Positions 32,732 through 62,462 of a DNA stretch of 64,000 nt are shown here, one piece after another. Each line of letters opens with the position of its first letter. Position 1 is the stretch's first letter. Source of the DNA: Desulfomonilia bacterium (GTDB lineage Bacteria; Desulfobacterota; Desulfomonilia; UBA1062); contig CAXXDQ010000003.1 of the NCBI GenBank assembly GCA_963664325.2, forward strand, positions 640,001 through 704,000, given 5' to 3'. The notes below the pieces were generated by a model that saw nothing but the letters and a program-made list of their open reading frames with translations, did no database searches and had not been told where the DNA came from. A program made the translations under genes and the position numbers.

Positions 32732-32790
32732 TGCCCGGGGCGGGGGTCGAACCCGCACGGCCTCAGAGGCCGAGGGATTTTAAGTCCCTT
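32732..32790 (-). tRNA. 3' half of tRNA-Leu(TAA); att site, not a complete gene
   Basis: The minus strand reads AGGGA-CTTAAAA-TCCCT anticodon arm, a long variable arm, GCGGGTTCGACCCCCGC T-arm and CCCGGGCA acceptor. The D-arm and 5' acceptor strand are absent. Confidence 0.88.
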
Positions 32791-32903: not shown

Positions 32904-32925
32904 TACTGGGGCAATACTGGGGCAA
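32904..32925 (+). repeat. tandem 11-bp repeat, probable integrase arm-type sites
   Basis: TACTGGGGCAA x2 between the att core and the integrase start. Confidence 0.6.
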
Positions 32926-32944
32926 ACTGCCGAGGGATTATTTT

Positions 32945-34634: not shown

Positions 34635-34760
34635 TCATGCTAGGACAAATCGCACCCCGGCCTGGGAGGGCGACACGGGGGATAAATCTGGTGAATCTGG
34701 GTGCCAAAACCTTGACATATATCAACAACAGTGTCAAGTCGCGTCGATTCAGGTGCTATA

Positions 34761-38399: not shown

Positions 38400-38873
38400 A
38401 TGAAAACAGCAACGACGACAGAACCCAAAAGAAAGATAAGCAAGACGAGACTTGATTGTATGCTGCGAAGACGTAAAATAATCGAGGCATGTCTTGAAGG
38501 AAAACCCTTGAAAGAAACCGCTATTGCAGTGGGTTTATCGCCACGGTCAGCGGGAACACAGGTATCTCAAATATTAAAAGAACCGAAAGTTCAGCAGTAT
38601 TTTGCCGAAATATTGGAGACAGAGGGGCTATCTGATAAAATATTGGCAGAAAAGCTCCAATATCTATTGAATGCTCGCAATATCATCTATTTTCAGCACA
38701 AAGGACGTGTTACTGATGAAAGGGATGTTCCGGCTCACGAAACACAACGCAAGACCCTGGAACTGATCGCCCGGCTGAAAGGCCACCTGAAAGAAGCTGA
38801 TCGGGGTAGCGTAGATGTCCAGGTCAACCTCATGGGCCTTGTTGTCCAGGCACTAAAGCAGGATCAGGACTGA
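38400..38873 (+). CDS. terminase small subunit-like protein
   Basis: ETAIAVGLSPRSAGTQVSQILKEPKVQ resembles the TerS N-terminal HTH; KTLELIARLKG tail. Confidence 0.6.
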   Translation: MKTATTTEPKRKISKTRLDCMLRRRKIIEACLEGKPLKETAIAVGLSPRSAGTQVSQILKEPKVQQYFAEILETEGLSDKILAEKLQYLLNARNIIYFQHKGRVTDERDVPAHETQRKTLELIARLKGHLKEADRGSVDVQVNLMGLVVQALKQDQD

Positions 38874-41646: not shown

Positions 41647-41762
41647 GCTCTGGCATGTTTGGAACAATTTAGATCTAAAGAGTGTTGTACATGTAGGAGC
41701 TACTTTGATCTAAAGTGGCTCCTAACATTCAATATCAGACAAAATTATTGGGAGGGGGTATC

Positions 41763-45191: not shown

Positions 45192-45253
45192 TAATATTCA
45201 ATAAATGGGCAAGCGTGAGTATGAAATTTCAAGATAACATGAGGAGGTTTCTT

Positions 45254-46249: not shown

Positions 46250-46421
46250 GGTTAAGGAAAGGTTTTGATGGATGGCACAAGGCGTAAATTCCATGTAATC
46301 TATTTACTCATATAAGGCATTATGTTCAAAAAATTATAAAACTGACTTATTGCTTCACCTGATACAGCATACCAGAACATTCATCTATGAAAACAGGAAT
46401 TAAAAAGTTGAGGAGGGTACA

Positions 46422-48137
46422 ATGAAAATCAGAAAGCATCTTATCATCATATTGGTGATCGGGCTATTCATGACTGCTTGCGGACCCAAGGTTGTCTCGA
46501 CTGATCCTTGCAAAACATGTGAGAGCCCCTGGTACACTACAGTGAATGCGACCTTCAATCAGAACATCAACCCCGCCACTGTCAACTCCACCACATTTAA
46601 GGTTGAAAAAGATGGCAGTCCTGTTCCCGGGACAATAATGGTCAGCGGCAAGACTGTGACCTTTATGCCAACCAGTTATTTCGATGTCCCTCATCCATAT
46701 ACCGTCACACTGACAAAGGGGATCAAGAACACATCGGGCTTTGCTATGCAGAAAGATTATTCATGGCCTTTCACGACTGAGCATGGATGGAAAAACCCTA
46801 AGAACATCGATGACAACATAAGTCCCAATGGAACTGGAGCTTACCTTTTGGGACATATTGAAGGATCCGAGAGCATTGTTACGAATGAAAAAAATGATGC
46901 CATTATTACATGGAGACAAGAAGGTGGAGGATCATACGATCAGATTTTCAAGAGCGAATATCACAATGGTATTTGGACCCATCCTTCTGGCCTCTCAGAC
47001 ACGGTCAGCCCTGATGGCACCAAAGCTAGTGAGCCTCGTGTTGGCTTGGACAATGAAGGCAATGCAATAATTGTTTGGCGCCAATATGTTGGACAACCAG
47101 ATGCAAGTTCTTATCATATGTTTAAAAGGGAGCGTCATGACGGTGTTTGGGAACCTAAACCGTCATTAACAGATTATTTTGATCCAGGCATTTCTAGCGG
47201 AAATAGTTCTTTTGTCATGAGTAGCGGAGGTGATGCAGTTTTCTCCTATGGTGAAAATCTAAATGCTCCTTCTGGTCGTAGCAGATTGTTTGCGAGTGAG
47301 TATCGGGATGGAGTATGGAATCATCTTGGACCTGATGACTATATTAACCCAGATGGCCCGGATTGGACCGAAAATGGAAATATAGCAATTAATGCAAATG
47401 GTGATACGATAATAACTTGGTATCAACCGGATGCAAGTGGCATATACCAGACCTTCAAGAGTGAATACAGGAATGGTGTCTGGATACGTCCTTTGAACCT
47501 ATCTGACAACATTAGCCCTGATGGTTGGGATGTAAGTTTCCCAATGGTCGCAATAGCAGACAATGATGATGCAATCATCGTGTGGCAGCAATATGATGGG
47601 ATCAGCAATGTCAGGATATTTAAGTATGAATATCGTAGTGGGTCTTGGTCGGGTCCTACATCTATCAGTCCTGTTGGAACATCGGCCGATTTCCCCCATG
47701 TGGCAATGGATGCCAATGGCAATGCAATCATAACATGGACACAGATTGATGAGAGTGGCTATTCCCAGTGCTTCAAAAGCGAATATCGAAATGGTGTCTG
47801 GACACATCCGTCAAGTATTTCCGATCACATCAGCCTCGATGGAACAGAAGTATTTGGTACGAATGTGGCCATGGATTCAAGCGGATCAGCCATCATAACA
47901 TGGTATCAGAAATGTTATAAAGGATATATTCAGGTATTTAAGTGTGAGAAACGAAATGGGTCATGGATATGCCCAACAGGACTCTCAGATCATCTCAGTC
48001 CTGATGGATCAGACACAGTAGCACACTCATATTTTTCTCCAGTTGTTGCAATGGATGGCAAAGGTAATGCGATAATAGCATGGAGTCAGTACGACAGTGA
48101 CCATTTCTATCAGGTTTTCAAGAGCGAGTACCGGTAA
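46422..48137 (+). CDS. lipoprotein: Ig-like (Big_5-type) + beta-propeller repeats
   Basis: Lipobox MTAC; repeats of VAMDxxGNAIIxW..Q.FKSEYRNGxW. Confidence 0.8.
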   Translation: MKIRKHLIIILVIGLFMTACGPKVVSTDPCKTCESPWYTTVNATFNQNINPATVNSTTFKVEKDGSPVPGTIMVSGKTVTFMPTSYFDVPHPYTVTLTKGIKNTSGFAMQKDYSWPFTTEHGWKNPKNIDDNISPNGTGAYLLGHIEGSESIVTNEKNDAIITWRQEGGGSYDQIFKSEYHNGIWTHPSGLSDTVSPDGTKASEPRVGLDNEGNAIIVWRQYVGQPDASSYHMFKRERHDGVWEPKPSLTDYFDPGISSGNSSFVMSSGGDAVFSYGENLNAPSGRSRLFASEYRDGVWNHLGPDDYINPDGPDWTENGNIAINANGDTIITWYQPDASGIYQTFKSEYRNGVWIRPLNLSDNISPDGWDVSFPMVAIADNDDAIIVWQQYDGISNVRIFKYEYRSGSWSGPTSISPVGTSADFPHVAMDANGNAIITWTQIDESGYSQCFKSEYRNGVWTHPSSISDHISLDGTEVFGTNVAMDSSGSAIITWYQKCYKGYIQVFKCEKRNGSWICPTGLSDHLSPDGSDTVAHSYFSPVVAMDGKGNAIIAWSQYDSDHFYQVFKSEYR

Positions 48138-48230
48138 AGCAGGTGGAACGAGATTGGTGAGATAACTGAATCAAGTCCTGATGATTATAGGAACAAAAAA
48201 ATAAAATTTTAAAATCAATTGGAGGGTACA

Positions 48231-49289
48231 ATGAAAAGATCATTATTATTACTTACCTTACTTTTTGTCTCACTTATATTGGGCGGCTGCATCATGTCTT
48301 CAACACCATCTTCGCCTGTGTCAGTTTCTGCAGGTGATTCGATAACATTCAAGGTCACAGTGTTTCCTGTGAATATAACTGTGCAGTGGTACGTCGATAC
48401 AAATCTGGTTTCGGGTACTACAGAAAAGTCTTTCATCTATTCTCCCGAAGAAGGTGATGTTGGCACTCACACCATAACCATAAAGGAGACCTCGGGATGC
48501 ATTTTCCTTGGTCAGCATTCTTGGGAAGTTGAGGTCATTTCTAGCATAAAGGATATCACGCAGTTCACTATTCTCGGCATAAATGGCACGATAGGGACTA
48601 ATACGATAGCCCTAACAGTACCCTATGGGACAAGCCTTACATCTTTAACACCTACGATAACTCATACAGGAGCGAGCATAAACCCAGCATCCGGAGTAGC
48701 GCAGAACTTTACAAATCCTGTACAATACACAGTTACAGCTGAAGATGGATCAATGAAGAATTATATGGTTACCGTAAGTGTTGCCCCAAATAAATCTTAT
48801 ACATTTACTGCTACTTGGACCAATAGGCCTTATAGTACAGCTACAGAAGAAGGTACTAGAGGAAATGAAGGAGATGGTGATGATTCTACTTATTGGGGAA
48901 GTTATGTATATACTAATATTGATGGGGATTTTCATAATGAGAACACTGCCCATTTAACTTATACTTATAGTACTCCTCAAATAGTTACATCTGTTCGTTT
49001 TAAGATGATTCAATATGCGTATAGTACTGGCAATAATTATGAATGGAATACATTATCGTCTTCTTTATGTTTATATGATTGGTCTGATAATTTAGTAGCT
49101 ACATTATATAGTTTTAGTAAAACAACACCCCGTGCAAATTATACAAATGATACGGGAGATTTAACTTATAATACTGGTTGGGCTAATATTAAAAGAGTAG
49201 AATTAAATATGTTTGGTGTAGCTCATGGGGATGATGGTGGAGGATCTCGTCATAGGCTTTATGAGTTAACTGTTAATACTGCTGATTGA
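48231..49289 (+). CDS. lipoprotein: Ig-like + DUF5018-like + jelly-roll-like C-terminal domain
   Basis: Lipobox LGGC; KDITQF...VPYGT..LTPTI..NFTNPVQYTVTAEDGS; beta-rich tail. Confidence 0.7.
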   Translation: MKRSLLLLTLLFVSLILGGCIMSSTPSSPVSVSAGDSITFKVTVFPVNITVQWYVDTNLVSGTTEKSFIYSPEEGDVGTHTITIKETSGCIFLGQHSWEVEVISSIKDITQFTILGINGTIGTNTIALTVPYGTSLTSLTPTITHTGASINPASGVAQNFTNPVQYTVTAEDGSMKNYMVTVSVAPNKSYTFTATWTNRPYSTATEEGTRGNEGDGDDSTYWGSYVYTNIDGDFHNENTAHLTYTYSTPQIVTSVRFKMIQYAYSTGNNYEWNTLSSSLCLYDWSDNLVATLYSFSKTTPRANYTNDTGDLTYNTGWANIKRVELNMFGVAHGDDGGGSRHRLYELTVNTAD

Positions 49290-49301
49290 TAGGAGGATCC
49301 A

Positions 49302-50315
49302 ATGAAGAGATCATTATCAATTCTTATTGTGCTTATTTTCATGTCTTTACTGAGCGGGTGCATATTATCCAAAACACCTAAAACAGATACCATTGATATA
49401 CAATTGGGCAAGCAGGTAACTTTCAGTGTGAATGTTTTTCCATCCAATGCTACCTATACCTGGACATTGGATGGTACGCCCCTAATGTATGTATTTGGGA
49501 AATCGTATGTGTACACTTCTACTGGGGGTAATCACAAACTTGTGGTTAAGGCGAAACAATCTTTGGGTACAGATACCCAGACATGGAATATCACCTGTGA
49601 TCCAATTGTCGGTTTATTGAACAGCCTGGTCAGTATCTCAGGTGGCACATTCATGATGGGGAGCACAGATAATGAATATTCATGGGCGAAATACACCACA
49701 CCGGTTCACGAGGTGACAGTTCCGAGTTTTGAGATCGGCGCCTATGAGATTACTCAGGCGCAATATACAGCGATCATGGGTATTAATCCTTCTTATTACC
49801 AAGAGGGACATGGCTACTCTGGCACCGAGAACTACCCGGTGGAAAATCTTACCTGGTATGAAGCAAGAGAGTTTTGCACAGCTCTCTCGGTACAGACAGG
49901 ACGGACCTTCGACTTGCCAAGTGAAGCGCAGTGGGAATATGCCTGTCGAGCAGGAACTACTACACTCTACAGCTTCGGTGATGCTGATGAACTTCTAGCC
50001 ACCTATGGCTGGTACTATGCAAACAGCAATGATGCAACCCATCCCGTAGGCACGAAACTGCCGAACCCCTGGGGCTTGTATGATATGCATGGCAACGTGT
50101 GGGAGTGGGCTCTGGATTCATGGCACTTTAACTATGATGGAGCACCAACAGATGGCAGCGCATGGGATCCTGATACTGGCCCTTACCGCATGATTCGCGG
50201 TGGCAGCTTTTTCTCCGACCATGCGGGGAGCTGCCGGTCGGCGGCTCGTGGTGTCCTCTACCCCCCCAGCTACGCGAACCGGGGTCTAGGCTTCCGCATC
50301 GTCGAAATTCCATAG
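49302..50315 (+). CDS. lipoprotein: Ig-like + FGE-sulfatase (CLec-fold) domain, paralog of 45254..46249
   Basis: Lipobox LSGC-ILSKTP; LPSEAQWEYACRAG, PNPWGLYDMHGNVWEW and RGGS..GFRIVEIP. Confidence 0.87.
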   Translation: MKRSLSILIVLIFMSLLSGCILSKTPKTDTIDIQLGKQVTFSVNVFPSNATYTWTLDGTPLMYVFGKSYVYTSTGGNHKLVVKAKQSLGTDTQTWNITCDPIVGLLNSLVSISGGTFMMGSTDNEYSWAKYTTPVHEVTVPSFEIGAYEITQAQYTAIMGINPSYYQEGHGYSGTENYPVENLTWYEAREFCTALSVQTGRTFDLPSEAQWEYACRAGTTTLYSFGDADELLATYGWYYANSNDATHPVGTKLPNPWGLYDMHGNVWEWALDSWHFNYDGAPTDGSAWDPDTGPYRMIRGGSFFSDHAGSCRSAARGVLYPPSYANRGLGFRIVEIP

Positions 50316-50373: not shown

Positions 50374-50409
50374 GCTCTTAGTAATACAAGTTTAGATAGT
50401 TTCATGTAG

Positions 50410-50514
50410 AGATATCTGCGATAGATAATAGCTTTTTTGAGTTCGTAAAAGCTATGATATCCGAATGAGTTCTAATAAATCCCAAAGCTTCATCTTGGAA
50501 TGAATTTCCTCAAG
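50410..50514. repeat. decayed island repeat family, copy 1
   Basis: Begins AGATATCTGCGATA; aligns without gaps to 58199-58303 at roughly 70% by hand count. Confidence 0.7.
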
Positions 50515-50756
50515 CAGCCAACAGCCTCTGTGCAGATGTAATTCATGTAATAAACTTAAAAATTTGCCCATTGTATTATACTGATTACATTGAATTAAAT
50601 TTAAGTTTATTAGGAGATATATGCACTTTCCTAATGAACAATTATTTGATGATGACGGCCATTATATACAGTCCGTAAATGATCATCATTACTGTGTATC
50701 TCTTTTGGAGATCATAAGATTTTCGGCCTTTAAAAATTGAATGTTTTCTCAGGAGA

Positions 50757-50813
50757 TGATAACGTAAGGATCACCAGCGGCTGAAAGCCGACTGGTGCAT
50801 CCTTTTATTCGAC
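50757..50813 (-). other. attC site (degenerate R'')
   Basis: Minus strand GTCGAAT-aaaaggatgcacca..gctttcagc..tggtgatcctt-ac-GTTATCA; imperfect hairpin, closely similar to 54372-54425. Confidence 0.7.
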
Positions 50814-50894
50814 ATTGTTCTCACCATTGAACTTGTTGAGTGGCTCAGATACACCATTAAGCACTTCTTGGTAAGCTAACTTCTTCCATGTTCA

Positions 50895-52061
50895 TCATCT
50901 TCTTAGGAGTCGTTTGAACTGTTTCTGGCTCAAAGGTAAAAAAGGAACAACCGATACATTAGGTCCGCACGAAACTGCAATGGACTTCGAGATCCCCGCT
51001 CCGATTCTCGCTTTCTCGGCAGCAATCACTTTGATAGCACGTGCCCCTTCTATAACATCACCACCAGCTAATATTATGGATTCGATAATCTGTGCTCCTC
51101 GTCTAATATATACACCGTCACCGATGATGGCACATTTCACTTTAACGTCCTCTTCGATCGTTACCCCATCTCCAATCAAACATGGAGGTACGAGCCTAGC
51201 GCTGTTCGCTATCTTGGCATTCCGGCCAATATGCACCTTGTTTATTTCTGGCCCTAACAATGTTGAAAAATTGCCCTTGAGAGCATTCAATTGGGCGGCG
51301 TGATAAATGCCTAAGGTGCCAATGTCTATACGGTAACCCAAGCCAATGTCAAACGCCATGCAAGTTCTGCTCGAAACGAGTCTAGGAAACAAGTTACTGG
51401 CAAAATCGATGAATCCTTCCCTAGGGATTTCAAATAGGGCCTCCCGGCTCATAATGTATACAGCTGCGTTCGCTAAGGGATTCATGTAATCGGGAATCTT
51501 TTCCAAGAGCGCCTTCTCAGTAAACATTGTTATACGTCCTTGCTGGTTCACTTCCATTACGCCGTAATTCGTGCGGGTACCACGTGGGGGATACACAGGA
51601 TCTCTATCGTGATAATCGTACAGGAATGCTGAAAAATCGGGCTGGTGGGATAGAATCGTCAAGTCAGCTGCCATAGCTTTGTGGTTTTCCATCATAGCTG
51701 AAAAGTTCGCTGATAGAAGACTGTCGCCATAGACAATCATTACAGGATCAGAAAGGGAGTCTCTGATACGAGTGGCGACATCATATGAGCACCCAGCCGT
51801 GCCGCGCCATGGAAAGTCTTCTATATACCTTATACGCAAACCCCACGCACTCCCATCTTTATATCGTGATTTCACTTCATCATGCCGTCCTGACGAAGTG
51901 AAAACAACATCCTCAATGCCTTGGGAGCTTAGTTCCTTAAGCAAGTAGTCGAATAGTGGTCGCCCGAGGAATGGAACCATACATTTGACTATGTTCTCTG
52001 AAAGTGGCAGCATTCGGCTCGCTGTCCCTCCATTTAATAAGATTACTGTGATATCCTTCAT
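50895..52061 (-). CDS. NDP-sugar synthase-like nucleotidyltransferase with left-handed beta-helix tail
   Basis: VILLNGGTASRMLPL..K..VPFLGRP, GTAG, VYGD, YGV, FTEK and DIGT; hexapeptide repeats. Confidence 0.85.
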   Translation of the reverse strand: MKDITVILLNGGTASRMLPLSENIVKCMVPFLGRPLFDYLLKELSSQGIEDVVFTSSGRHDEVKSRYKDGSAWGLRIRYIEDFPWRGTAGCSYDVATRIRDSLSDPVMIVYGDSLLSANFSAMMENHKAMAADLTILSHQPDFSAFLYDYHDRDPVYPPRGTRTNYGVMEVNQQGRITMFTEKALLEKIPDYMNPLANAAVYIMSREALFEIPREGFIDFASNLFPRLVSSRTCMAFDIGLGYRIDIGTLGIYHAAQLNALKGNFSTLLGPEINKVHIGRNAKIANSARLVPPCLIGDGVTIEEDVKVKCAIIGDGVYIRRGAQIIESIILAGGDVIEGARAIKVIAAEKARIGAGISKSIAVSCGPNVSVVPFLPLSQKQFKRLLRR

Positions 52062-52074
52062 TATAGATATTTCT

Positions 52075-54327
52075 TCAAACCCAGAAAGGCTCATCGGGAG
52101 TACCTTTTGTTGCCCACTCTTCAGCTAGGCGATAAGAAGAAAACTTCCTAAAAACCTCGAACAAGGCGTTCATATACAGATTCTGATGAAAATGCCTAGT
52201 GCAGTAACCACAAGCTTCTCTATCCACTGGCAATGGCCGCCTTTGAAATGCCTTATGATCCTCGCCAAACCAGATATTCTCCAACTCATTACCAGCTTTT
52301 GGGTCAACAGCAGTTCCGGCTGAATGTCGAAGGGATCCCATTTTGTATCTCTCCCTCAACTTCGATTCGCAGAAATTGTCGTCGAATAAAAAGCAGCATG
52401 GATAAACATCTCCATTGGCAGTGATTTTACACGTTAACCTGAGAGCCATACACGTGTAATCAGCCCGCCTGAGATCATGTAGCCGTTTGTTTACGGGTTC
52501 GCCTTTAGCCAAGCCTGAATAGTCGAAAATATTGTTATTTATCATCGTCTCCAAATATTTGAAATCAAAGCGGCTATTCAGACCTTGCAACGATACTCCT
52601 TCTCTTATCACTTTTCTCAACTCCATCTCGTTACACAGAAAACTTCGCCCCTGTTGATCAGGGCCATGTGCTATTTTGAATCTGACACTGTATTCTTTGG
52701 CGGTGAGCCATTCTGCTATGGCGAGAAAGTTCTCCTTGCCATTCAACAATTCTTTCACATTGTCTTTTTGAATTGTGTAGCACACTTCAACATTCTTAAA
52801 CTTGGCTTTTTCAAAAGACATGATCGTTGCTTTCACATAGTCTAACGAACCATTTTTCCTTATATCCCTGTAGATATCATCCGTGAAGGCATCAAGTGAT
52901 AATTGGACCCAGCTGCACGAGTTGGCAATTCCTTCTGCTTCCGCGATATTGATGCCACGGACTTCGCCATTTTTTTCCGGGTCCTGACGTATGCCATTAG
53001 TCAGCAGACCTATTTTTAAATCACATTGTTTTTTAGCGTAACGAAGAATATGCAAGATATCTGGCCTGGCAAGCGGCTCACCTCCGGATATTATCAATGC
53101 TCTTGTTTGCAGTTTCTTAATGCTATCCAGAATCCTTTCTATTTCCACCGTCTCTAACTCTTCGTCTGGATTATAGAGTGCATGGTGATTGCACATCTTA
53201 CAAGTGGTTGTACATCTATTGGTGACCAAGAATTGAATACAAGCGGGTCTGACTTTTGTTGATTTCCATGGTGGTAAGCCAAATTCAGATACGAATATGT
53301 TGGCCGCATAGGCATTTAGCGCTTCTGCTGTGTTGTTTCTCGTTATTGAGTGGAGGGGATAGTTCTCCAATTTGATTGTAGCGATATCATTCTCTGCCTC
53401 CTGCTTTTTCTTGTCATATTCCTTTATCGGATCGGCCATAAATTTGATCCTTGTGATATCGTCTCGAAATGGTTTAAAGTGATGGTCAAAACTCCTAGGA
53501 GCCAAGCGGCGTCTCTGAAAAACCAACATGGGTTTTGATAGGCCGCTCTTCGGATCTTCAAAAACGGTTCGAAGGTCCAAATGGAATCTCTCATCACGAT
53601 GATCCAACTTAAGATGGAGCATTCCGTTTCTGATCTGTCCCGGATAAACACTTAATTCTAGTTTTTCCAGGTCATTTGGTTGGTGGCTTTTCTTTTTACC
53701 TTCTTGCAACATAGTATTCGATTGGTTAATCTCCTCCAAGAATGTACGACGTATCTCCTTAAAATTACCAATCGCTTCTTCAATCTGGATGCTGAGCTTC
53801 TTGACCGCCTTAATGGCTTCTTCGTTTTCACTCTCGCCACCTTTCAACGGATTCAGGTCCAATACCGGCTCATATGGGTTTTGAATTACAAAATGAAGGC
53901 AACTCCCATGACGCAGTGCCGCTAGGATTTTATTGGACAGATCTCGCCGGCCAATTTCATACGATTCCATGTCGTGGTTGAAATAGAATTCATTCCCACA
54001 GAGCCAAGAAAAACAAGAACGACCTACAATCGTCAATTCGCCTTTACGTGTGGTAATCTCATCCAGTGTTTGCATTGGCCCGTAGCGAATCGGTACGCTG
54101 CTACGGTTTGGGTAGTACTTGACGGTCGGAGTTATGAAGTCTTCAGCATTGGCAACCAATATAACAACCAGCGATACTATAACAGTTAGAATTAAACTTG
54201 TGCCAATTAGTAACCAACCTCTTAACGGTGTAGTTATGCCAATTATAGTTATGATAAGAGTAAATAAGGTTAAAACACTTGGTGGAATTAACCACATTGA
54301 CTTTATGTATTTCTTCATATTTTGCAT
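52075..54327 (-). CDS. 2TM + alpha/beta (PLD/DUF5919-like) domain + radical SAM + SPASM-type fusion
   Basis: Two N-terminal TM helices; CTTTCKMC, SGGEPL, LLTNG and QLSLD; C..L...ITANGDVYPCC...CGYC. GAAGGAG RBS. Confidence 0.8.
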   Translation of the reverse strand: MQNMKKYIKSMWLIPPSVLTLFTLIITIIGITTPLRGWLLIGTSLILTVIVSLVVILVANAEDFITPTVKYYPNRSSVPIRYGPMQTLDEITTRKGELTIVGRSCFSWLCGNEFYFNHDMESYEIGRRDLSNKILAALRHGSCLHFVIQNPYEPVLDLNPLKGGESENEEAIKAVKKLSIQIEEAIGNFKEIRRTFLEEINQSNTMLQEGKKKSHQPNDLEKLELSVYPGQIRNGMLHLKLDHRDERFHLDLRTVFEDPKSGLSKPMLVFQRRRLAPRSFDHHFKPFRDDITRIKFMADPIKEYDKKKQEAENDIATIKLENYPLHSITRNNTAEALNAYAANIFVSEFGLPPWKSTKVRPACIQFLVTNRCTTTCKMCNHHALYNPDEELETVEIERILDSIKKLQTRALIISGGEPLARPDILHILRYAKKQCDLKIGLLTNGIRQDPEKNGEVRGINIAEAEGIANSCSWVQLSLDAFTDDIYRDIRKNGSLDYVKATIMSFEKAKFKNVEVCYTIQKDNVKELLNGKENFLAIAEWLTAKEYSVRFKIAHGPDQQGRSFLCNEMELRKVIREGVSLQGLNSRFDFKYLETMINNNIFDYSGLAKGEPVNKRLHDLRRADYTCMALRLTCKITANGDVYPCCFLFDDNFCESKLRERYKMGSLRHSAGTAVDPKAGNELENIWFGEDHKAFQRRPLPVDREACGYCTRHFHQNLYMNALFEVFRKFSSYRLAEEWATKGTPDEPFWV

Positions 54328-54371
54328 GTGATCTCTCCTTCACATGGGATAGCTCTCTTTTTGCACTTTCC

Positions 54372-54425
54372 GTCCATCAGGCATCACCGGCGGCTGAAAG
54401 CCTCCGGTGCATCCTTTTGTTATAC
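54372..54425 (-). other. attC site (degenerate R')
   Basis: Minus strand GTATAAC-aaaaggatgcaccgg..gctttcagc..ccggtgatgcct-GATGGAC. The upstream gene's TAA stop lies inside R''. Confidence 0.75.
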
Positions 54426-55103
54426 ATCTTTTACTGGTGGTTTTCCAATTCTCGATAGCTTCAAGTTCAAAGATTTCTTACGTTCATCAAGCCTTTTAGG
54501 CTGGACAAAAACAAAATCAAACAAAGAATCTAAGACTTCAAGAAGCCACTCTGCTTCACCGTTTTCAACATCTACAATTTCACCAGTGGAGACATCTTTT
54601 TCCGGATGAGCTGCAAAATTACCGATGGTTCTAATTGCGTCAATCGCTTCAGCTAAGTAAGATGGAGTTGTTTTGTTTTTCAAGAAGTCATCAATTTCTT
54701 TAGCGAGACTTGATTTCTTTATTTTTATTTCCTCCCTCAAAATACATTGCAAGAGTCTCCGACTTATAGCAGCACTTGCTTTTGGGCTTAGATTTAGTAC
54801 AGCAACAGCCTCTAAAAAATCATTCTTATAAATTTCTGGTACTTCTGGTTGGACAGGACGAATAGCCATTTTGGGGTAAAGAATTTCCTCGGAAGACACT
54901 GATGTTAGACTTTCACCGTATTTATCTTTTTTATATTCTCCTTCTTCTAAGATTACAATAAGCTCCTCGCATAATGGACAAAAACCATGGGTTACAGCAA
55001 AGCCACTACCTTTCGGTTCTTCCTCTTTATTTAAAGAATGGTACACAGCGCTATCAGGACTTTCAAAATGGATCCCCTTACCACAATGCGGACAAATATT
55101 CAT
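54420..55103 (-). CDS. DUF4145 (HEPN-like) protein with N-terminal Zn ribbon; gene cassette
   Basis: CPHC...CPLC; EA..L.LSPKASAAISRRLLQ; IRTIGNFAAH. Confidence 0.8.
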   Translation of the reverse strand: MNICPHCGKGIHFESPDSAVYHSLNKEEEPKGSGFAVTHGFCPLCEELIVILEEGEYKKDKYGESLTSVSSEEILYPKMAIRPVQPEVPEIYKNDFLEAVAVLNLSPKASAAISRRLLQCILREEIKIKKSSLAKEIDDFLKNKTTPSYLAEAIDAIRTIGNFAAHPEKDVSTGEIVDVENGEAEWLLEVLDSLFDFVFVQPKRLDERKKSLNLKLSRIGKPPVKDV

Positions 55104-55115
55104 TATTCATCTCCT

Positions 55116-55179
55116 GCATAACGCTGCGGCTCTGCAGCCGCGGCGCGCTTTCGCGGTCTGCAGCAGCCGCTTGTTAGCT
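55116..55179 (-). other. attC site
   Basis: Minus strand AGCTAAC-aagcggctgctgcagaccgcg...cgcggctgcagagccgcagc-GTTATGC, 64 bp, followed by AGGAG and the next ATG. Confidence 0.92.
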
Positions 55180-55196
55180 GATACTCGATAAAAACC

Positions 55197-55796
55197 CTAT
55201 TTCCAGGGTTCCATGGCTCTTTCTTCAAAAGTTTTTAAAAGCCTCGGCCCGACATTAATGGCCCATTTGGCTGAACGTTTATCTACTTGTGCCCCATGAG
55301 CTGCTTGGTTCAATAGGCCAATCATATCTGTAAGAATTGAATATTCTTCTTTACTTATAAGCTGCTTATTCAATACCTCAAGCAAAATGCCTCCAATTCC
55401 TCTGGCTCGAATCTCATGACCGCGAGAAATTGCTAAGGTGTTAAGTTTCTTCTCAAGCTCTATTCTCAATCCAGCAAGTGCAAGATTAGGATCTTGATCT
55501 GCAACTAACATAAATGAATATTCAGGGTCTTTCCCTTCCTTTTCGTTTACTGGTGAGAGTAAGCCTATCGCATCGGCTTTATCAGAGGTTTTTTGAAGAT
55601 CTTGAAATTCAACCTTCCAACCACCTGGAAATTCTAAGGTTTTAAAGAGCGGCGCAAGCCAAGGGATTATTGCTGCTACAAGCAGTACAATTGTTACATA
55701 ATCGATCCCAAGCTTGGGCCAAACAAGATGGATAAGCGCAAGCAAGAGAGCTGAAATTGTTACAATCTGTTTGAGTTTCTTATTATTCATTCTCAT
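55197..55796 (-). CDS. 2TM membrane protein with HEPN-like C-terminal domain; gene cassette
   Basis: Two TM helices; LALAGLRIELEKKL and LLNQAAHG; bounded by attC sites. Confidence 0.65.
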   Translation of the reverse strand: MRMNNKKLKQIVTISALLLALIHLVWPKLGIDYVTIVLLVAAIIPWLAPLFKTLEFPGGWKVEFQDLQKTSDKADAIGLLSPVNEKEGKDPEYSFMLVADQDPNLALAGLRIELEKKLNTLAISRGHEIRARGIGGILLEVLNKQLISKEEYSILTDMIGLLNQAAHGAQVDKRSAKWAINVGPRLLKTFEERAMEPWK

Positions 55797-55806
55797 TTAC
55801 CTGGAC

Positions 55807-55930
55807 AGCTAACGCTTGGCATCAGCGGCGGTTTACGTTTGCTACGTAGTAGCAACGTGGCATTTTGTTTGCTCTTTTTCTGCAAACAAAATGCCACGAG
55901 TAAGCCGTCCGTTGCATGCCGTTGTTAGCC
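55807..55930 (-). other. attC site (long, 124 bp)
   Basis: Minus strand GGCTAAC-aacggcatgcaacggacggc...ccgccgctgatgccaagc-GTTAGCT, with an internal CGTGGCATTTTGTTTGC/GCAAACAAAATGCCACG stem. Confidence 0.92.
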
Positions 55931-55933
55931 TCT

Positions 55934-57843
55934 CTAGTATTTGCGGAGATATTTCATATCACGTATAGCATCTTTTAAGAACTCTGCGAAATCATCTCTC
56001 TGAATCAGAGCGCGTCGCACCTTCGAGCCGGTTATAGGCACAATTAAAGGGCTCGACGCATTTCCTGCTTGATTGCGGAGTGTGCGTATTGCATCTTCCG
56101 TGAAACCGCTTCCAGACACGAAGAACGCCAATTGAATGCCGCGGACTTGTGCAACCTTGTGGGCAAAGCTCCCAACTTCCTCCAGCGGAACGTCGGTGTT
56201 CCAGTTCTTACATTCCACCAATACTTCACCTCCGTAATCAGCCCAAAACGGTTCACTTTTCTTCATCTCTAGTACAAGGTCTATTTCGCCGTTTTCCGTA
56301 TTGTAATCACGCCTGACAATTGAGAAACACTGACCGAAGAACCTAGAAGAAAACTCCTCAAACAGCCTGCCTTTGTCATGTGATGCCAGCCCCGCATCGC
56401 CAGTGCGTTCAAGGAGGGCGAGAAGGTCGTCGTAGACGTCGACGGGCTCACGATCACTTAGGCTTCTATTCGCGGAGTCGATCAGTTGTGAGACGAAACC
56501 TTCGCCAACTTCGTGGATGAAGCTAGAGATCACATATTGAGTAAGGCGCCTATTTCGTGTTCTTCCGTGCGAGGACACATTTTGCCGCTAGCAGTATTTG
56601 GCGCTTCTCCACAGCAGCCTCAATGATAGGCCCGACGTCTGGAAGGAGACCGCATGCCATGACTACGAACATTATGGAGATCGAAGCGATCGACCATGCC
56701 GACGACTCTAGCCGGTTCGCTGCTGACAGCACGGGCGGAGTAGTACTCAAGGAACGTAAGGTGTATGAAGCAAACCTGGTTTGGGGAAATCTCAAGGAGA
56801 ATCCCTGTGGTAAGCAACTCGTCAAGGAATTGCTCGTCAGCATCTCTACGTTCCCCGTGAGCCTCAAGGAAATCGCCGAGCATGCCTCTAATTTCCGCCC
56901 GCGAGGCAGAGTTCTGAGCCCGCACAATCAGAAGTTCATAGCCTATCTGTTCCAGTGCGCTTTGCTTCGCGCGTAAGGAAATGCTTACTCTGGATACGCC
57001 CTTTGCTCGTTCCCATGTGGAGAGGAGAAAGTCTGTACAATCGGCATAAAGGGAGGTCAGATTATCCGGCAACATCCCTCTTGATCGAAACACCTGCCAT
57101 AGGAGGTGTAAGAGCAGCGGGTTAGAGGCGAGGGCATATAGGGTAAGGTGAGATTGGATTGCCTGGAGAAACCTATCGGCATATTCCGGCTGTTCCGCGG
57201 ACAGTCTACGTGACAACGCTCGGATGGATCCGATATCAAAGGGTTCAAGGTGGAAATAGACGAAGCCACGAATTGGCGAGGAAAGCCCGGAAGGACGCGA
57301 GGAAGCAAGCACTTTCAAGTCTGGATGGGCATGTCCAAGAGAACCCAACTCATTCACGAAGTGGTAGCGACGGGCTGAGTCAACTTCGTCGATCCCATCA
57401 ATAACTATGACAAAGCGATTGTCGCGGAGAAGAGAGCGCACCTGATCTGCTTGGTCGTCCTTTCCGATGCGCTGACAGACAATCTGGCCAAGCCGGTCCA
57501 CTAAAGTGTCCCCGCTCGCAAGTGAAGCAACATCAGGGGCACGAAAGAAGAGAGGACACGGTGCGAACTTCGTATCTTTCAAAAAGGCTTGTGCGAGAGT
57601 CACCGCGTAGAATTTTAGGAGGGTGGTCTTCCCAGCTCCCGGAGGACCCAGGATTGTCAGTCTCATGTGTTTGTCAATCGTCTGCCGTGAACCAAATAGC
57701 TCGCCGGTGGCATCTGCAACCTGTGGCTCGACAAAGAGCTTGTCGATATCTTGGCGAGTCGGACCTGCAACCGGCACTAGGTAGTCCAGGTACCCCAAGT
57801 CATGCAAAGCGAATTCGGCGATTCTTTTGAGTAATGACTTCAT
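55934..57843 (-). CDS. NACHT NTPase fused to a C-terminal Mrr-like PD-(D/E)xK restriction endonuclease (two +1 frameshifts); gene cassette
   Basis: GPPGAGKTT, VIDGIDEV, SSRP, NPLLL and FIHLTFLEYY; KGRLFEE..GEIDL..VECKNW..SGFT. The frames join on removing single bases near 56668 and 56573. Confidence 0.8.
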
Positions 57844-57856
57844 GTAATTCCCGAAA

Positions 57857-57875
57857 GGCTAACAATTAATATACG
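57857..57875 (-). other. attI-like first junction of the cassette array
   Basis: Minus strand CGTATAT-TAATT-GTTAGCC. The R box is the exact complement of the GGCTAAC opening this cassette's attC; no attC hairpin lies upstream. Confidence 0.6.
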
Positions 57876-58198
57876 TAATATATGTTTATGCTGTTTTCAA
57901 ACAGCCCCCTTGGGTTAATGGTTAAATATTTACAATAACGTTCTAATTAAATCAAATATTTATAATTTAATGATTATGTATTTAGTACGTATTACCATTA
58001 AAAGCGTAATACGTATTATCAGTGGTATTTGGTTTATTCTTAGATTGGGCCTGCATAGTAAGCCCAACAAATCAATGTTGGATTTCACGTCTAATAACAT
58101 TCAACTCAAACTGCATATATGCCCGCAAGACCATTACTGTCCAGCGATTATGCAAAAATATACAGTGCTACAATACATCAATGCTCCTGCCAGACTAT

Positions 58199-58303
58199 AG
58201 ATATCTGCGATAAATGAGTGCTCTTCTGAACTCGAAAAAGTTATAATATCCAAATGATATAGAATGAATCTCCCGCACTCTTCTTGGGATGAAGATCCTC
58301 AAG
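58199..58303. repeat. decayed island repeat family, copy 2
   Basis: AGATATCTGCGATA...TCCTCAAG, colinear with 50410-50514. Confidence 0.7.
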
Positions 58304-58494
58304 AGATCTATCATTTTTGAGATAGGAAAAACTATAATTTGCATGCCAGGATCGCAACTTTAATATCTGCATTTGATAGTATAGGTTTCTTCAGAAGATT
58401 AAAACAACAGCCATCAGGGGCATAGGTGGCAGCCCTCGTCAGTCTGCGTGCTATTGCTTGGTACCATTGTTCCCAATAATCATAACCCTCTTTA

Positions 58495-59724
58495 TTAGAA
58501 ACGAAGGGGAACAGATGAATCTTCTACTTCCACGAAGTCGTATGCATATTTCAAAAGCAACGAAACAACGGCAATTCTACCAAAATCTTTATTTGCAGTA
58601 GGTCCTTGGACAATCTTTTTTATTGGTAGAAGAGTACATTTGTTAACTACAGGAAATCTGAGTTCAGTATATGGGACAATTGAAGCATCCGAAGTACGAA
58701 ATTTCAATGCTTCTAAGTCATTACTTAAACCACTTGTTAACACACATCTCCATTCTTTCTCTTCATAAAAGCTTGGATGTTTGAAAGTGTATAGAAACTC
58801 TTCGATAATTATACCTGCAACATGACCAATGTATGCAATAATATTATTCTCCTCTTCTGCTGGACGGCCTATTGCATTCTTCTCAATACATTCATTTATC
58901 TGAGAGATAATATCATCGATAATTTTAAGTTGTATTTCAGGGTCATATATCACTCTCCTCAGGAAGAACCCAGGGTCCGTTATGGAAAGTTCATTTATTA
59001 TAGTTGAATCAAACCCTATGCAAAAACCAACCGAGCCTCCTGTATAGCCACGCCATTGGCTTAGTAAATCACCATTTTCACAAAAGCATAATAAAAATCT
59101 ATAATTACTTGGCCGGGTCTTGAAGACTTCTTTGCATCGTTCCCAAAACACTCTATGTTTAGCAGATTTTTCCCTACTCGAAATTTCTTTCTCTATTCGA
59201 TTAAAGATCAGTTCACGTGCATACTCAAGTTCTGAAGAATCATTTAAAAAGCGGAAGTCAGTTGCCCAAAGGTTCCCCTCTTTAAGAATCCCGATTAGAC
59301 CAGGAATTTTCGTATAGTGAAATAACAATGGCGGTCGCTGTCGCTGGTATTGTGACCAGTACTTATACAAGTTCGTGTTAAGCTCGGTTAAAAAAGATGT
59401 ATATGGTCCAATATCAACAAAGGAATGCTTACGACCGAAAAATACATCCGGATTTGCTGGTGATTTTAGTAAACGAGTATACAACTCAGGATACTTTGCT
59501 GGCTTAGTAAGATTATTCAACCAACCACAATTATTACAAATTCCGGCAGCGTTCGATAAATTAGGAAGATATTGCCCTTCAATAAGACTACTGTGACAAT
59601 ATCCACAAACGAAGCTGCCTGTCCCTTCTGTTTTTATCAAAACAGTCTTGTCAGAATTTAACTTTAATTTACCCATGTACTCACCACAACTGTCCGACAC
59701 TAGTGTTAACGGAATATTTTTCAT
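58495..59724 (-). CDS. DUF2971-like protein with N-terminal Zn ribbon
   Basis: CGYC..CNNC; LFHYT...ILK..LWATD..FLNDSSE, CF.E.GDLLSQWRGY, GFCIGFD and KHPSFYEEKEWR. Confidence 0.8.
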   Translation of the reverse strand: MKNIPLTLVSDSCGEYMGKLKLNSDKTVLIKTEGTGSFVCGYCHSSLIEGQYLPNLSNAAGICNNCGWLNNLTKPAKYPELYTRLLKSPANPDVFFGRKHSFVDIGPYTSFLTELNTNLYKYWSQYQRQRPPLLFHYTKIPGLIGILKEGNLWATDFRFLNDSSELEYARELIFNRIEKEISSREKSAKHRVFWERCKEVFKTRPSNYRFLLCFCENGDLLSQWRGYTGGSVGFCIGFDSTIINELSITDPGFFLRRVIYDPEIQLKIIDDIISQINECIEKNAIGRPAEEENNIIAYIGHVAGIIIEEFLYTFKHPSFYEEKEWRCVLTSGLSNDLEALKFRTSDASIVPYTELRFPVVNKCTLLPIKKIVQGPTANKDFGRIAVVSLLLKYAYDFVEVEDSSVPLRF

Positions 59725-60266
59725 TTGTACTCCCTTATACTTAACTAATAATTATATTACATATAATGCCTTATAGATTACCTTCCGGGGGAAAGGTCAC
59801 ATTCAAGAAACTTATTACTCCGACGATTATCTTATATCGCAGATTGTTAATTCTATTTCATTGTCTAATTTGTAATCCAAACAACTTGACTTTCAGTATG
59901 GTGAAATTATTATATCTATGTATAATTATTCAGCACACATTTTCACAGTGCTATTTGAAATGCCGAAGTAGTATCTATTGATTGATTTTCATGTAGTTCT
60001 CCATACACCAAAACACATCTTGAGTCAGAGAATTAAGACCAAAATTAAGGAATAGAAATCAGCATTCGAGTAGTTCTCCGTACCGTTGAGGAAGACTACT
60101 AAGAATCAACAAAAGAGGAAACAATTATGGCCAGAATTCATAAAAACATAGATAATAAGGCCTTTTTCAATAAGGTTTATGATTATCTAAAAAATATTTG
60201 CTCAAGTAATTTAACAGTCAAAGAACAAATCAATAAGTTCAAAGTAAGTTATTGATAGGAGGTTAT

Positions 60267-62462
60267 ATGGGTTCACTCGAAGAAGGAAATGAATATCATA
60301 CTCTTTCAGTAAAGGATCTTCTCGAGGCACGGGATGCATATCATGTTTTTCTTATGAGGAAAAAAAACGTTATTGGAACAGCAATCGGTTTATATCGTGT
60401 TTGCAAGGATAAAACAAAGCCCAGAACACTTAAGAACTCTGAAGTACGCAGCGGTTACTCATGGCCATGTGTGCTGGTGTTTGTAGAGGGATGGGTTCAA
60501 AAAAAGAGCTTTGGTAAGGCTCAAAAAGCATCATATAATGATTATATACCAAAATCTCTCTATCTCCCGGATGGTCGGGAAATCCCTGTGTGCGTTATAC
60601 TGTCAGAGTGGGGACAAAAAAATCCGGAAACAATTCTGAAGATGAAGTTTCCAGGAAATGTGATTGGCGGCGGTTATCCTATCATGACAAAAGTGCAAGG
60701 AGAAGAACGCTGGGCAACCCTGGGATGCCTAGTCAGTGATGGTAGGCTCACTTATGGATTGACTAACGCACATGTAACAGGTCAACCAGGCGAAAGCCTG
60801 TATACGATAATCAATGGCAATGAAGAAGAGATTGGTAAATCATCATCAAAAAACCTCAAGAAGATACCTTTTACTCAAGTTTATGAGAGCCTGCCTGGTA
60901 AACATGCATTGGTAAACCTTGATATCGGCCTGATCGAACTGAACGACATAAACAATGTCACATCGCAGATATTCGGATTAGGAAAGGTAATGGGTCTACT
61001 TGATGTTAATCATGACACATTGTCCCTTAAGCTCATTGGTTGTCCAGTAATGGGATTTGGATGTTCATCTGGTCTTATGAAAGGGGAGATTATTGCCCTT
61101 TTCTATAGGTATGAAACTGCGGGAGGATATGATTACATAGCAGACTACCTGATCGGTCCACGAAGTGAAAAAATCATGGTTGGTAAGTCATCCTTTAGCC
61201 CTAGGAAGGGTGACTCTGGGACCTTGCTGGTGATAGACAAACCTAAAAGTTCTGAACATATGAAGGCCATAGGTGTTCTGTGGGGTGGACAAAAAGATAT
61301 CACTAATGAATCCGAACAGCCTTATGGTTTAGCGACAAACCTTGGGACTATATGCAAGAATATGGACATTGAGCTTGTGTCTAGCTGGAACTCAAACTAT
61401 GACACTTTTTTTGGTGCATATGCCCACATAACATTGCCAGGAATGTGTCTCAAAGTGATCAAAGATAAAAAGTTGAAAACGCTTATGGAGAACAATGCTG
61501 ATCGATTCAGCTTGCCACTTGAAGAGACTGCTGTGAACGATACTAAGGGATTGAGCAAGAAGCATTTTGTTCCATTGTCCGATGTTCCAGACTTAGTATG
61601 GAAGAGTAGAGGTGGAGAATTCCAGCGGAGCAAGGAAGGGCCGAACCATTTTGCAGACATGGATCAGCCCAATCCATCAGTTGGCGGCAAGACCCTTCTT
61701 GATATATGTGAAAATGTTAAAAATATTGATCCCGATGTGTGGGTGAACTTCTATAAAGAGTTAAAGGCCAAAGACATGGGAGCATTGCCGTTCAGGATAG
61801 CACAAATATATGACGCACTTGTTAAGTTTGCCAGGCAGGGACATGTAACTAATTTCATCTGCGCAGCTGGCATACTGTCTCATTATGTTTTTGATTCATG
61901 TATGCCACTCCACATCAGCTATATGCACCATGGGGATCCTGACGGGCCAAAAGATAGTAGTAACAAATCAATTTCGTACAATGTACATGCCGAATTCGAT
62001 AACCAGATGGTTGAATACTACGTTGAAACACTCAGGAATAACCTGGATAATTATGTGAAGGAAAAAGATGATGTAGGTGAACCAGTAAAACGAGGGAGCA
62101 TAAAAACAACAAAAGATGCAGCTAGAGCAGCTGTGACATTGATGTATAACACAGTGAATAAATATGCGAACCCTAAGAACATAGTGAAGGATTATGAGAA
62201 ACTGGTTGATGAGAATAAACGTGCACGCTGTGCCCAGTTGTGGGATAAATATGGGGAAGGAATGCAGCACGCAATGGCAGAGGCCGTTGTACTGACAGCC
62301 CGATTGTGGGAAGCTGCTTGGGACAATGGAAATGGGAAAAACAACATCCACAATACAGATTCCATTCCTGAAGACGACCTGAAAAAACTCTATGAGACAA
62401 AGACAGGATTTCTTGACTCAGTTAGACTCTCAGAGATCAAGGGTACTATGACATGGACATAG
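60267..62462 (+). CDS. trypsin-like (Nal1-like) serine protease fused to an S1/P1 nuclease-phospholipase C-like domain
   Basis: Triad motifs TNAHV, LDIGLI and KGDSG; C-terminal VPD, NHFADMD, LPFRI, SHYVFDSCMPLH and VHAEFD. AGGAGG RBS. Confidence 0.78.
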   Translation: MGSLEEGNEYHTLSVKDLLEARDAYHVFLMRKKNVIGTAIGLYRVCKDKTKPRTLKNSEVRSGYSWPCVLVFVEGWVQKKSFGKAQKASYNDYIPKSLYLPDGREIPVCVILSEWGQKNPETILKMKFPGNVIGGGYPIMTKVQGEERWATLGCLVSDGRLTYGLTNAHVTGQPGESLYTIINGNEEEIGKSSSKNLKKIPFTQVYESLPGKHALVNLDIGLIELNDINNVTSQIFGLGKVMGLLDVNHDTLSLKLIGCPVMGFGCSSGLMKGEIIALFYRYETAGGYDYIADYLIGPRSEKIMVGKSSFSPRKGDSGTLLVIDKPKSSEHMKAIGVLWGGQKDITNESEQPYGLATNLGTICKNMDIELVSSWNSNYDTFFGAYAHITLPGMCLKVIKDKKLKTLMENNADRFSLPLEETAVNDTKGLSKKHFVPLSDVPDLVWKSRGGEFQRSKEGPNHFADMDQPNPSVGGKTLLDICENVKNIDPDVWVNFYKELKAKDMGALPFRIAQIYDALVKFARQGHVTNFICAAGILSHYVFDSCMPLHISYMHHGDPDGPKDSSNKSISYNVHAEFDNQMVEYYVETLRNNLDNYVKEKDDVGEPVKRGSIKTTKDAARAAVTLMYNTVNKYANPKNIVKDYEKLVDENKRARCAQLWDKYGEGMQHAMAEAVVLTARLWEAAWDNGNGKNNIHNTDSIPEDDLKKLYETKTGFLDSVRLSEIKGTMTWT

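Follow-up and report, generated by a model that had tools for sequence, protein, structure and literature searches.

A probable orphan integron with its own attI on a tRNA-Leu island of an uncultured Desulfomonilia bacterium

The 64,000-nt stretch of an uncultured Desulfomonilia genome analyzed here (assembly GCA_963664325.2, contig CAXXDQ010000003.1, positions 640,001 to 704,000; henceforth the window) harbors on its minus strand an array of four gene cassettes that probably constitutes an orphan integron, in which the cassettes come after an attI site and no integron integrase (IntI) is found in the assembled genome. In established terminology, the locus is an attC-site cluster without integron integrases (CALIN), here one that has kept its attI. 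A first-pass annotation of the window, made from the sequence alone, had described an integrase-less cassette array with four attC hairpins and an attI-like junction, all on the minus strand. All of these elements are present, and the array can be assigned more specifically as a CALIN with a genuine attI. Coordinates below are those of the window, its contig is referred to as C3 and its genome as G000, and array elements are read 5' to 3' on the minus strand.

The four attC sites differ in their state of preservation. The first, attC1 (55807..55930, 124 nt), carries the R'' box GGCTAAC, the R' box GTTAGCT, and a long variable stem, and attC2 (55116..55179, 64 nt) combines R'' AGCTAAC with R' GTTATGC. 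The full attC architecture, i.e., RYYYAAC/GTTRRRY boxes, an imperfect hairpin, and extrahelical bases on the R''/L'' side of the bottom strand, is complete in these two sites only, the remaining two being damaged: attC3 (54372..54425; R'' GTATAAC) lacks a GTT R' box and shows a mismatch where one bulge would be, and attC4 (50757..50813; R' GTTATCA) has the R'' box GTCGAAT, in which AAC is changed to AAT. The annotation had described the two distal sites as near-copies with damaged R boxes, and attC3 and attC4 indeed share 85% identity over 46 nt. Both belong to the same sequence family as an attC of the IntI-linked array in the related genome G035 (L020:3028-3084), to which they are nearly identical.

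The ends of the cassettes pair in the manner expected of integron cassettes. The first six bases of a cassette complement the R'' box of its own attC, exactly in cassettes 1 and 2 and with one mismatch in cassette 3; the resulting end pairs, GTTAGCC/GGCTAAC (exact), GTTAGCT/AGCTAAC (exact), and GTTATGC/GTATAAC (one mismatch), are those that the annotation had listed. Within attC2 itself, R'' and R' agree at one of the four variable bases. Such shifted R-box pairing arises because the IntI crossover falls between G and TT, and it is not expected of terminators or generic hairpins. A hairpin scan that demands R''/R' complementarity overlooks attC2, because this criterion ignores the cassette shift.

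To assess whether the sites are more than chance, we used two covariance models built for this analysis. R1 was derived from 7 attC sites with a hand-given structure, and R2 from 20 sites aligned to R1. The training sites stem from IntI-linked arrays of four related genomes, where they were recovered by an AAC...GTT hairpin scan of the DNA beside four IntI genes and display the same shifted R-box signature; no sequence of the window's own genome was included. Over the 64-kb window, R2 accepts the four sites (attC4 53.3, attC2 39.0, attC1 38.7 [E = 3.8e-7], and attC3 32.3 bits; E-values from 6e-11 to 2e-5) and returns no further match at E ≤ 1. The four matches share the minus-strand orientation and are separated by 627, 690, and 3558 nt, in each case below 4 kb. 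Run unfiltered on the window, R1 gave 58.9 bits for attC4, 38.4 for attC3, and 32.3 for attC2 on the minus strand, far lower plus-strand scores (attC4 16.5 and attC3 15.7 bits), and no further match below an E-value of 2. In the model alignment, attC3 shows non-standard pairs at its R' box.

Folding of the bottom-strand DNA points in the same direction. The attC folds have z-scores between -3.1 and -11.4, the most stable being that of attC1 (-44.4 kcal/mol, z -11.4), with -21 kcal/mol for attC2, and the 3' half of the bottom-strand fold, which is the canonical attC side, carries the single-base bulges. When 13 attC sites of the genome are aligned to R2, 88% of the cells pair and 12 of 19 pairs are changed on both sides; none of 500 shuffles reaches the observed pairing, and slid controls pair at 26-51%, with the caveat that an alignment fitted to the model leans towards structure. 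RNAalifold applied to a MAFFT alignment of 18 attC sites predicted zero pairs because the stems are out of register in that alignment. A search of Rfam, which has no attC family, found nothing in the window at gathering thresholds.

The second component of the integron, leader and attI, occupies 57857..58214 on the minus strand. The junction with cassette 1 reads TATTAATT G|TTAGCC, placing the G|TT crossover between 57863 and 57862 within GTTAGCC (57863-57857), and the last ~165 nt of the leader represent the conserved attI proper. Judged by sequence comparison, this junction is a true attI, because the leader is conserved right up to the G|TT crossover, variable cassettes lie beyond it, and a homologue is located beside an intI. 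A BLAST search of 57870-58500 against the genome showed that the 345-nt leader (57870-58214) is 98.3% identical to C5:61601-61257 on another contig; this copy likewise stops at TATTAATT G|TTA and is followed by three different cassettes. The last 165 nt were found twice in the same-genus genome G001, with 84% identity on contig C83 and 82% on C78. The C83 copy lies ~380 nt from a divergent intI-like gene whose product matches the IntI model TIGR02249 over positions 3-167 with 192 bits and is 43% identical to the IntI of the related genome G031. The upstream flank of the C78 copy is not intI; it is preceded by a dispersed repeat, termed D1, that is discussed below. Across the four attI copies of the two genomes, the 150 nt that precede the G are 81-98% identical, and the 100 columns that follow GTTA 19-41%.

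The C5 copy belongs to a second integrase-less array with the same leader and attI, located downstream of hflX (C5:61257-64310; L024 9258-12306). Its three cassettes, each with an attC, encode an FRG-domain protein and unknown proteins of 236 and 215 aa. In the C83 integron of G001, a single cassette with a 132-nt attC precedes a segment that is almost the same in sequence as the one behind the last attC of the C5 array, and D1 comes next. Since this 3' segment is shared along with attI, the C5 array looks like an ortholog of a complete integron in which intI has been replaced, and the window array carries a recent copy of the C5-type intI-less leader.

IntI genes are common in the family: 17 of 61 genomes (60 related ones and G000's own entry) have a product above the curated TIGR02249 cut-off. 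In G000 (4.31 Mb, 9 contigs, 95.6% complete), the best match reached 84 bits against a cut-off of 265, and all ten matches are Xer- or phage-type recombinases that skip model positions 183-238, which form the IntI-specific insert. A tblastn search of this genome, queried with the IntI of G031 and the incomplete one of G001, retrieved only the same Xer and phage genes at 24-29% identity and no IntI fragment. The 64-kb window contains no IntI, in agreement with the annotation, and none adjoins the array: between the array and the end of the surrounding island lie a DUF2971 gene, a gene for a trypsin-like/zinc-phospholipase-like protein, and a 195-aa ORF, and the place of intI upstream of attI is occupied by a D1 repeat and 146 nt of other sequence. 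The array looks static in its present host because no IntI was found.

These observations suggest the following history. By the known mechanism, an IntI tyrosine recombinase would have joined the folded bottom-strand attC of each cassette to attI at G|TT. Cassettes would have entered one by one at attI, with cassette 1, encoding a NACHT-Mrr protein, being the newest and cassette 4, encoding a radical S-adenosylmethionine (SAM) protein, the oldest. The intI gene would later have been lost or replaced, as suggested by the congener in which attI is still found beside intI, and cassette loading would either predate this loss or have happened in a donor. Judged by sequence, excision of cassettes 1 and 2 would still be feasible with a supplied integrase, given the intact appearance of attI, attC1, and attC2. 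Cassettes 3 and 4 would be locked even in the presence of IntI, given the missing R' of attC3 and a C·A mismatch at the cleavage triplet of attC4. The array would now move only as cargo of a 31.6-kb tRNA-Leu island, through the island's own integrase.

Several points weigh against an orphan integron or temper the case for it. R1 and R2 are lineage-specific models rather than the curated attC model of IntegronFinder. The intI-like gene of G001 ends at a contig edge before the IntI-specific domain, and its identity rests on the N-terminal 167 positions. On the cassette strand of the leader, no sigma-70 consensus was found, where host promoter rules may differ. No cassette protein was found in another integron, and neither the DUF4145 protein of cassette 3 nor the radical SAM protein of cassette 4 has a match among 51 other genomes of the family at the thresholds used. 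Excision joints or alternative arrangements were absent from four sequencing runs, which were covered as assembled contigs of one sample and cannot show rare circles; the one run of raw reads had none that match the stretch. Finally, gaps in an assembly of 9 contigs that is 95.6% complete and carries indel errors, or an unbinned plasmid, might hide an intI.

Among alternative explanations, the most serious one centers on D1, a dispersed repeat of ~110-150 nt with the core TATCGCAGATATC. One copy (D1-A, 58196..58320, minus strand) lies directly upstream of the leader, at the expected place of intI. Another (D1-B, 50407-50514, minus strand) forms the end of the conserved 3' flank of the array (50407..50756, minus strand), which consists of blocks common to the flanks after the last attC on contigs C4, C5, and C8. 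A third copy is located at ~63870. In three genera of the family, D1 is conserved at 70-80% identity (further loci with it are L038, L030, L031, L032, and L036), frequently right beside attI or the final attC. In the other genera, it occurs with or without a nearby attC. Neither of two further identities proposed for the repeat held: a coding 3' end was rejected, as every copy has only a 15-69-codon frame, and a structured RNA is unsupported, with a consensus fold of only -3 kcal/mol.

Conceivably, D1, leader and attI, cassettes, 3' segment, and a second D1 together make up a mobile module that moves via D1 recombination, independently of IntI. D1-A and D1-B bracket the window array in direct orientation, and ~65-nt direct repeats ending in the same core TATCGCAGATATC bracket 12 kb around the C5 array (C5:61219-61285 and 73407-73475). 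C3 and C5 share the leader at 98% identity despite their different cassettes, and D1 adjoins integron parts in G001:C83 (there after the last attC of the intI-linked integron), G001:C78, and G066:C2. However, the two window copies are only 73% identical over 108 nt (D1-B against 58196-58303 of D1-A), the G066:C2 copy is inverted relative to its attC, and copies at G075:C20, G066:C8, and ~218.8 kb on C5 of G000 itself stand without an attC in the stretch examined. No recombinase is linked to D1, which has no long ORF and folds only weakly, and homologous recombination among a dispersed intergenic repeat may suffice to account for its distribution. We regard movement as a D1 module as unlikely.

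A working integron system served in trans was the interpretation favored by the first-pass annotation, which had the array loaded by a host IntI. In its strongest form, an IntI concealed by a gap of the assembly or carried by an unbinned plasmid would act on both attI platforms of the genome. The completeness of 95.6% in 9 contigs leaves some room for such a gene, IntI is frequent in the family, and attI, attC1, and attC2 are intact; moreover, G001 offers a layout of one integrase and two platforms, with one attI linked to intI and one without intI upstream. Against this stand the lack of any IntI gene or fragment in 4.3 Mb of sequence, the continuous assembly across the two attI copies, upstream of which the sequence is not intI, and the absence of variant arrangements in the four runs (contigs only, one sample). 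In short-read contigs of the source sample, the collapsed leader piece has a depth of 17 and its four flanks depths of 6.5, 10.1, 9, and 8; the leader depth thus approximates the sum of two copies, which fits two genomic copies rather than three. Loading in trans in the present host is accordingly improbable, and the annotation's proposal is not borne out by the genome at hand.

It is far less probable still that an integrase inserted the cassettes at a secondary, non-att site and that the apparent attI is a mere target flank. Cury et al. 2016 (PMC4889954) name secondary-site integration as a possible origin of CALINs, and a 2023 preprint deals with integrase-driven cassette insertion outside att sites. 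In two genomes, however, the flank is conserved at four loci with different cassettes, over 150-345 nt that end at the crossover; one of these loci adjoins intI. Several loci also have a conserved 3' segment behind the last attC, which resembles the second half of an ancestral attI. That the hairpins are transcription terminators or repetitive extragenic palindrome-like repeats after short ORFs, as their GC-rich stems directly behind stop codons and the missing full R boxes of attC3 and attC4 could suggest, merits hardly any credence in view of the RYYYAAC/GTTRRRY boxes, strand-asymmetric bulges, and shifted cassette-end signature, the sequence family shared with attC sites of IntI-linked arrays, and a terminator scan that yielded 6 terminator-like sites against 7.2 expected, with the cassette-strand one (52664-52647) inside the radical SAM gene.

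Returning to the orphan integron, we examined the cargo of its cassettes. Cassette 1 (55813..57862, minus strand, ~2050 bp) is annotated with a NACHT NTPase ORF (56620-57843; PF05729, 38.3 bits) and an Mrr_cat nuclease ORF (55934-56578; PF04471, 32 bits), with a third frame between the two. A short-read contig (run X1) has one base fewer at 56573 and one fewer at 56668; leaving out both bases gives an uninterrupted frame of 635 codons that starts with the ATG at 57843 and stops shortly before attC1. The split is most likely an assembly error, since the short-read contig restores the frame and a similar frame break occurs in polA, and the two ORFs probably represent one 635-aa gene. No repeat-type sensor domain was detected in the product, and the EruA model scored 43 bits against a cut-off of 1000. 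Cassette 3 (54372..55121, minus strand, ~750 bp including attC3) encodes a 227-aa DUF4145 protein (ORF 54420-55103; PF13643, E = 3.9e-16), the stop codon of which lies inside the R'' box of attC3. Residues 4-207 match positions 16-190 of the 211-position PADLOC profile for PD-T7-4 (E = 9.1e-16, 56 bits).

By homology, two of the four cassettes are thus defense-like, and their products probably act in phage defense, that of cassette 1 as a STAND (signal transduction ATPase with numerous domains) NTPase-nuclease and that of cassette 3 as a PD-T7-4-like protein. The annotation's description of the genes as defense-like applies to these two, whereas cassettes 2 and 4 received no defense assignment. 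Cassette 2 (55122..55812, minus strand, 691 bp) encodes a 199-aa protein (ORF 55197-55796) with zero matches in Pfam, NCBIfam, PADLOC, and PHROG. A language-model atlas places it near DUF4145-containing clusters with a score of 0.97, which we treat as a lead only; a relationship to DUF4145 proteins was not confirmed by BLASTP against cassette 3 or by Pfam at E ≤ 10, both of which were negative.

Cassette 4 (50757..54371, minus strand, ~3.6 kb of the array's 7.1 kb) contains two genes and ends with attC4. The first gene (52075-54327, minus strand) encodes a 750-aa, membrane-anchored protein that combines a phospholipase D (PLD)-like part with a radical SAM/SPASM half (PF04055, PF13186). Its N-terminus comprises two helices, and residues 66-355 have a predicted fold (mean predicted local distance difference test score 82.7) resembling the PLD-superfamily chains TrmBL2, phosphatidylserine synthase, FAM83, and Nuc (E-values 5e-5 to 3e-3, template-modeling scores 0.25-0.56); an invariant HKD motif is missing from the family alignment. 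The radical SAM/SPASM half is nearest in fold to sactipeptide maturases, anSME, BlsE, and DesII. Scoring of the best 8000 word-sharing candidates retrieved at least 14 relatives at E ≤ 1e-10, mostly 31-56% identical over 88-100% of the query, one shorter protein covering 70%. From these sequence comparisons, the protein is a member of a rare family with a conserved membrane anchor and PLD-like domain. A search of genome contigs returned no close relative. Neither a neighboring nucleotidyltransferase nor an attC accompanies the three distant relatives inspected (30-34% identity), which lie near toxin-antitoxin or PIN-PhoH genes, with no fixed partner gene. An identity as prokaryotic viperin (pVip) was rejected, as NF038283 gave 38 bits against a cut-off of 180, and the PADLOC pVip matches cover the radical SAM domain core only, i.e., reflect generic similarity. 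The second gene (50895-52094, minus strand) encodes a 399-aa sugar-1-phosphate nucleotidyltransferase-like protein with NTP_transferase and Hexapep domains; its best NCBIfam match, mannose-1-phosphate guanylyltransferase, reached 149 bits against a cut-off of 440.

The array resides on a mobile island of ~31.6 kb which, by sequence, is bounded by perfect 59-bp direct repeats at a tRNA-Leu gene. The left repeat (attL, 32732..32790, minus strand) is a copy of the 3' part of the tRNA and is 100% identical to C3:704428-704486, which lies inside an intact tRNA-Leu(taa) 427-512 nt past the window end (L042:427-512). About 66 nt at 32725-32790, including this tRNA 3' part, are 97-100% identical in three congeners, and the region before the island (24001-28570, the polA region) is syntenic in all three at 78-80% identity. 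The island begins with a tyrosine integrase (32945-34171, plus strand; PF00589, E = 1.8e-33; PHROG integrase family) and a prim-pol/DUF3987 primase-helicase (34731-37196, plus strand; PF13148, E = 5.5e-85; PF22763; PHROG DNA primase family), and also encodes a small regulator. This integrase/primase core is followed by a block of surface-protein genes, the array, and the DUF2971 and trypsin-like genes. The DUF2971 protein (58495-59724, minus strand) matches PADLOC PDC-S31 (E = 1.2e-6), and the 736-aa protein beyond it (60252-62462, plus strand) matches the PADLOC trypsin-like profile (E = 4e-24), with sub-threshold Pfam similarities to zinc phospholipase C and S1/P1 nuclease; the 195-aa ORF mentioned above lies in the same stretch.

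Phage satellites and P4- or PICI (phage-inducible chromosomal island)-like islands are hotspots of defense genes. The annotation had called the island satellite-like, which is possible: the direct repeats at tRNA-Leu, the integrase, and the primase agree with this designation, as does the defense-like cargo (DUF2971/PDC-S31-like, trypsin-like). The remaining evidence is less favorable, comprising only a weak TerS-like match in the N-terminal 50 residues of a 157-aa ORF (38400-38873, E = 2.8e-6), a size that is large at 31.6 kb, and ~10 kb of surface-protein genes. Unlike P4 and PICI satellites, the island contains this Big_5/fn3/FGE-sulfatase block and no capsid-remodeling gene, and no helper phage is known for it. 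Profile searches of the island detected no structural, capsid-remodeling, or clear packaging gene. The primase has no relative in IMG/VR contigs and is matched in one of 51 other family genomes. The surface-protein block, unusual cargo for a satellite-like element, spans 40084-50315 on the plus strand and encodes secreted or surface-type products: two with Big_5, a 1158-aa fn3/TSP3 protein, a DUF5018 protein, and two with FGE-sulfatase domains. The congener G002 has a related integrase, with DNA 85% identical over window 32727-34110.

The locus can be compared with several known systems. In two surveys (PMC4889954; PMC9024848), a CALIN comprises two or more attC sites of the same orientation spaced by less than 4 kb, with ORFs that share a strand and with IntI absent from the surrounding 10 kb. 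CALINs are about as common as complete integrons; half of them belong to genomes that lack IntI, and for 95% an intI pseudogene is absent from the vicinity. The window array resembles them in its co-oriented attC sites, same-strand ORFs, a genome without IntI, and the lack of a nearby intI pseudogene. IntegronFinder detects no attI outside class 1. Unlike the typical CALIN portrayed there, the window array has an attI, recognizable via the intI-adjacent site of a congener, and sits in a tRNA-integrated island. A further parallel is the Shewanella prophage M16-3 (PMC9892861), an integrated mobile element in which a CALIN has been described that carries its own attI. As there, our integrase-less array starts with a copy of the lineage attI, lies on an integrated element, and has a second attI copy elsewhere. 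In M16-3, however, the partner integron with an intact IntI is located in the same prophage, whereas no IntI was found in our genome, and the carrier island here is without phage structural genes.

Defense functions in cassettes are likewise documented. According to two preprints (bioRxiv 10.1101/2024.07.02.601686; 10.1101/2024.07.02.601719), defense systems are frequent in integron cassettes, and the first of them lists PD-T7-4 among the most frequent ones in cassettes of sedentary chromosomal integrons. Cassette 3 fits this picture of small single-gene systems, PD-T7-4 included. The same preprint (10.1101/2024.07.02.601686) emphasizes that sedentary integrons do not belong to mobile elements, whereas the window array lies on one, and with its two genes and 3.6 kb, cassette 4 far exceeds in size the streamlined defense systems described there. 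A literature search, which was not exhaustive, found no report of integrons on tRNA-integrated satellite-like islands.

Integrase-less arrays, defense cassettes, and an attI-bearing array on a mobile element have all been described before, and the current picture of integrons is unchanged by our results. What the locus adds is a clean, well-delimited orphan integron in an uncultured member of the Desulfomonilia, outside Vibrio, Xanthomonas, and the clinical classes, and an integron remnant carried by a tRNA-integrated island. It provides an experimentally usable attI for this lineage, attI sites being poorly described outside class 1. Compact candidates for defense screens are the 635-aa NACHT-Mrr protein, the PD-T7-4-like protein, and the membrane-anchored PLD-like and radical SAM/SPASM protein. 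A more far-reaching idea, to which we assign a small chance, is that the integron of this genus is a distributed system in which a single IntI loads several integrase-less, D1-associated platforms in trans. Each platform would consist of leader and attI, cassettes, and a conserved 3' segment, and the platforms would be scattered over the chromosome, with one of them on the tRNA-Leu island and its satellite-like core. If so, D1 would let platforms move or exchange leaders, defense cassettes would shuttle between the chromosome and a mobilizable island, and some strains, among them G001, would have the single IntI, which the one studied here would have lost.

Two minor sets of observations concern the assembly and the rest of the genome. 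The polA gene (26440-28570) is split by a frame break near 27310; together with positions 56573 and 56668 in cassette 1, this indicates that the assembly appears to carry indel errors, and other apparent pseudogenes therefore need caution. Same-family attC sites elsewhere in the genome, a search for which the annotation had proposed, were found on C5, C8, C4, and C7. The genome-wide R2 search, in which the best 150 of 1858 first-look candidates were scored, yielded at least 9 attC sites at E ≤ 0.01 on five contigs, and a direct search of the individual loci gave 4 sites in the window, 3 on C5, 3 on C8, 2 on C4, and 1 on C7. The three C8 sites (C8:143319-144736, L039) lie 6-7 kb from another tyrosine integrase and a Gp49/helix-turn-helix pair, the two C4 sites (C4:666564-667046, L026) are located between major facilitator superfamily transporter genes, and the C7 site (C7:343913-343976, L040) directly follows a DUF4062-TIR gene.

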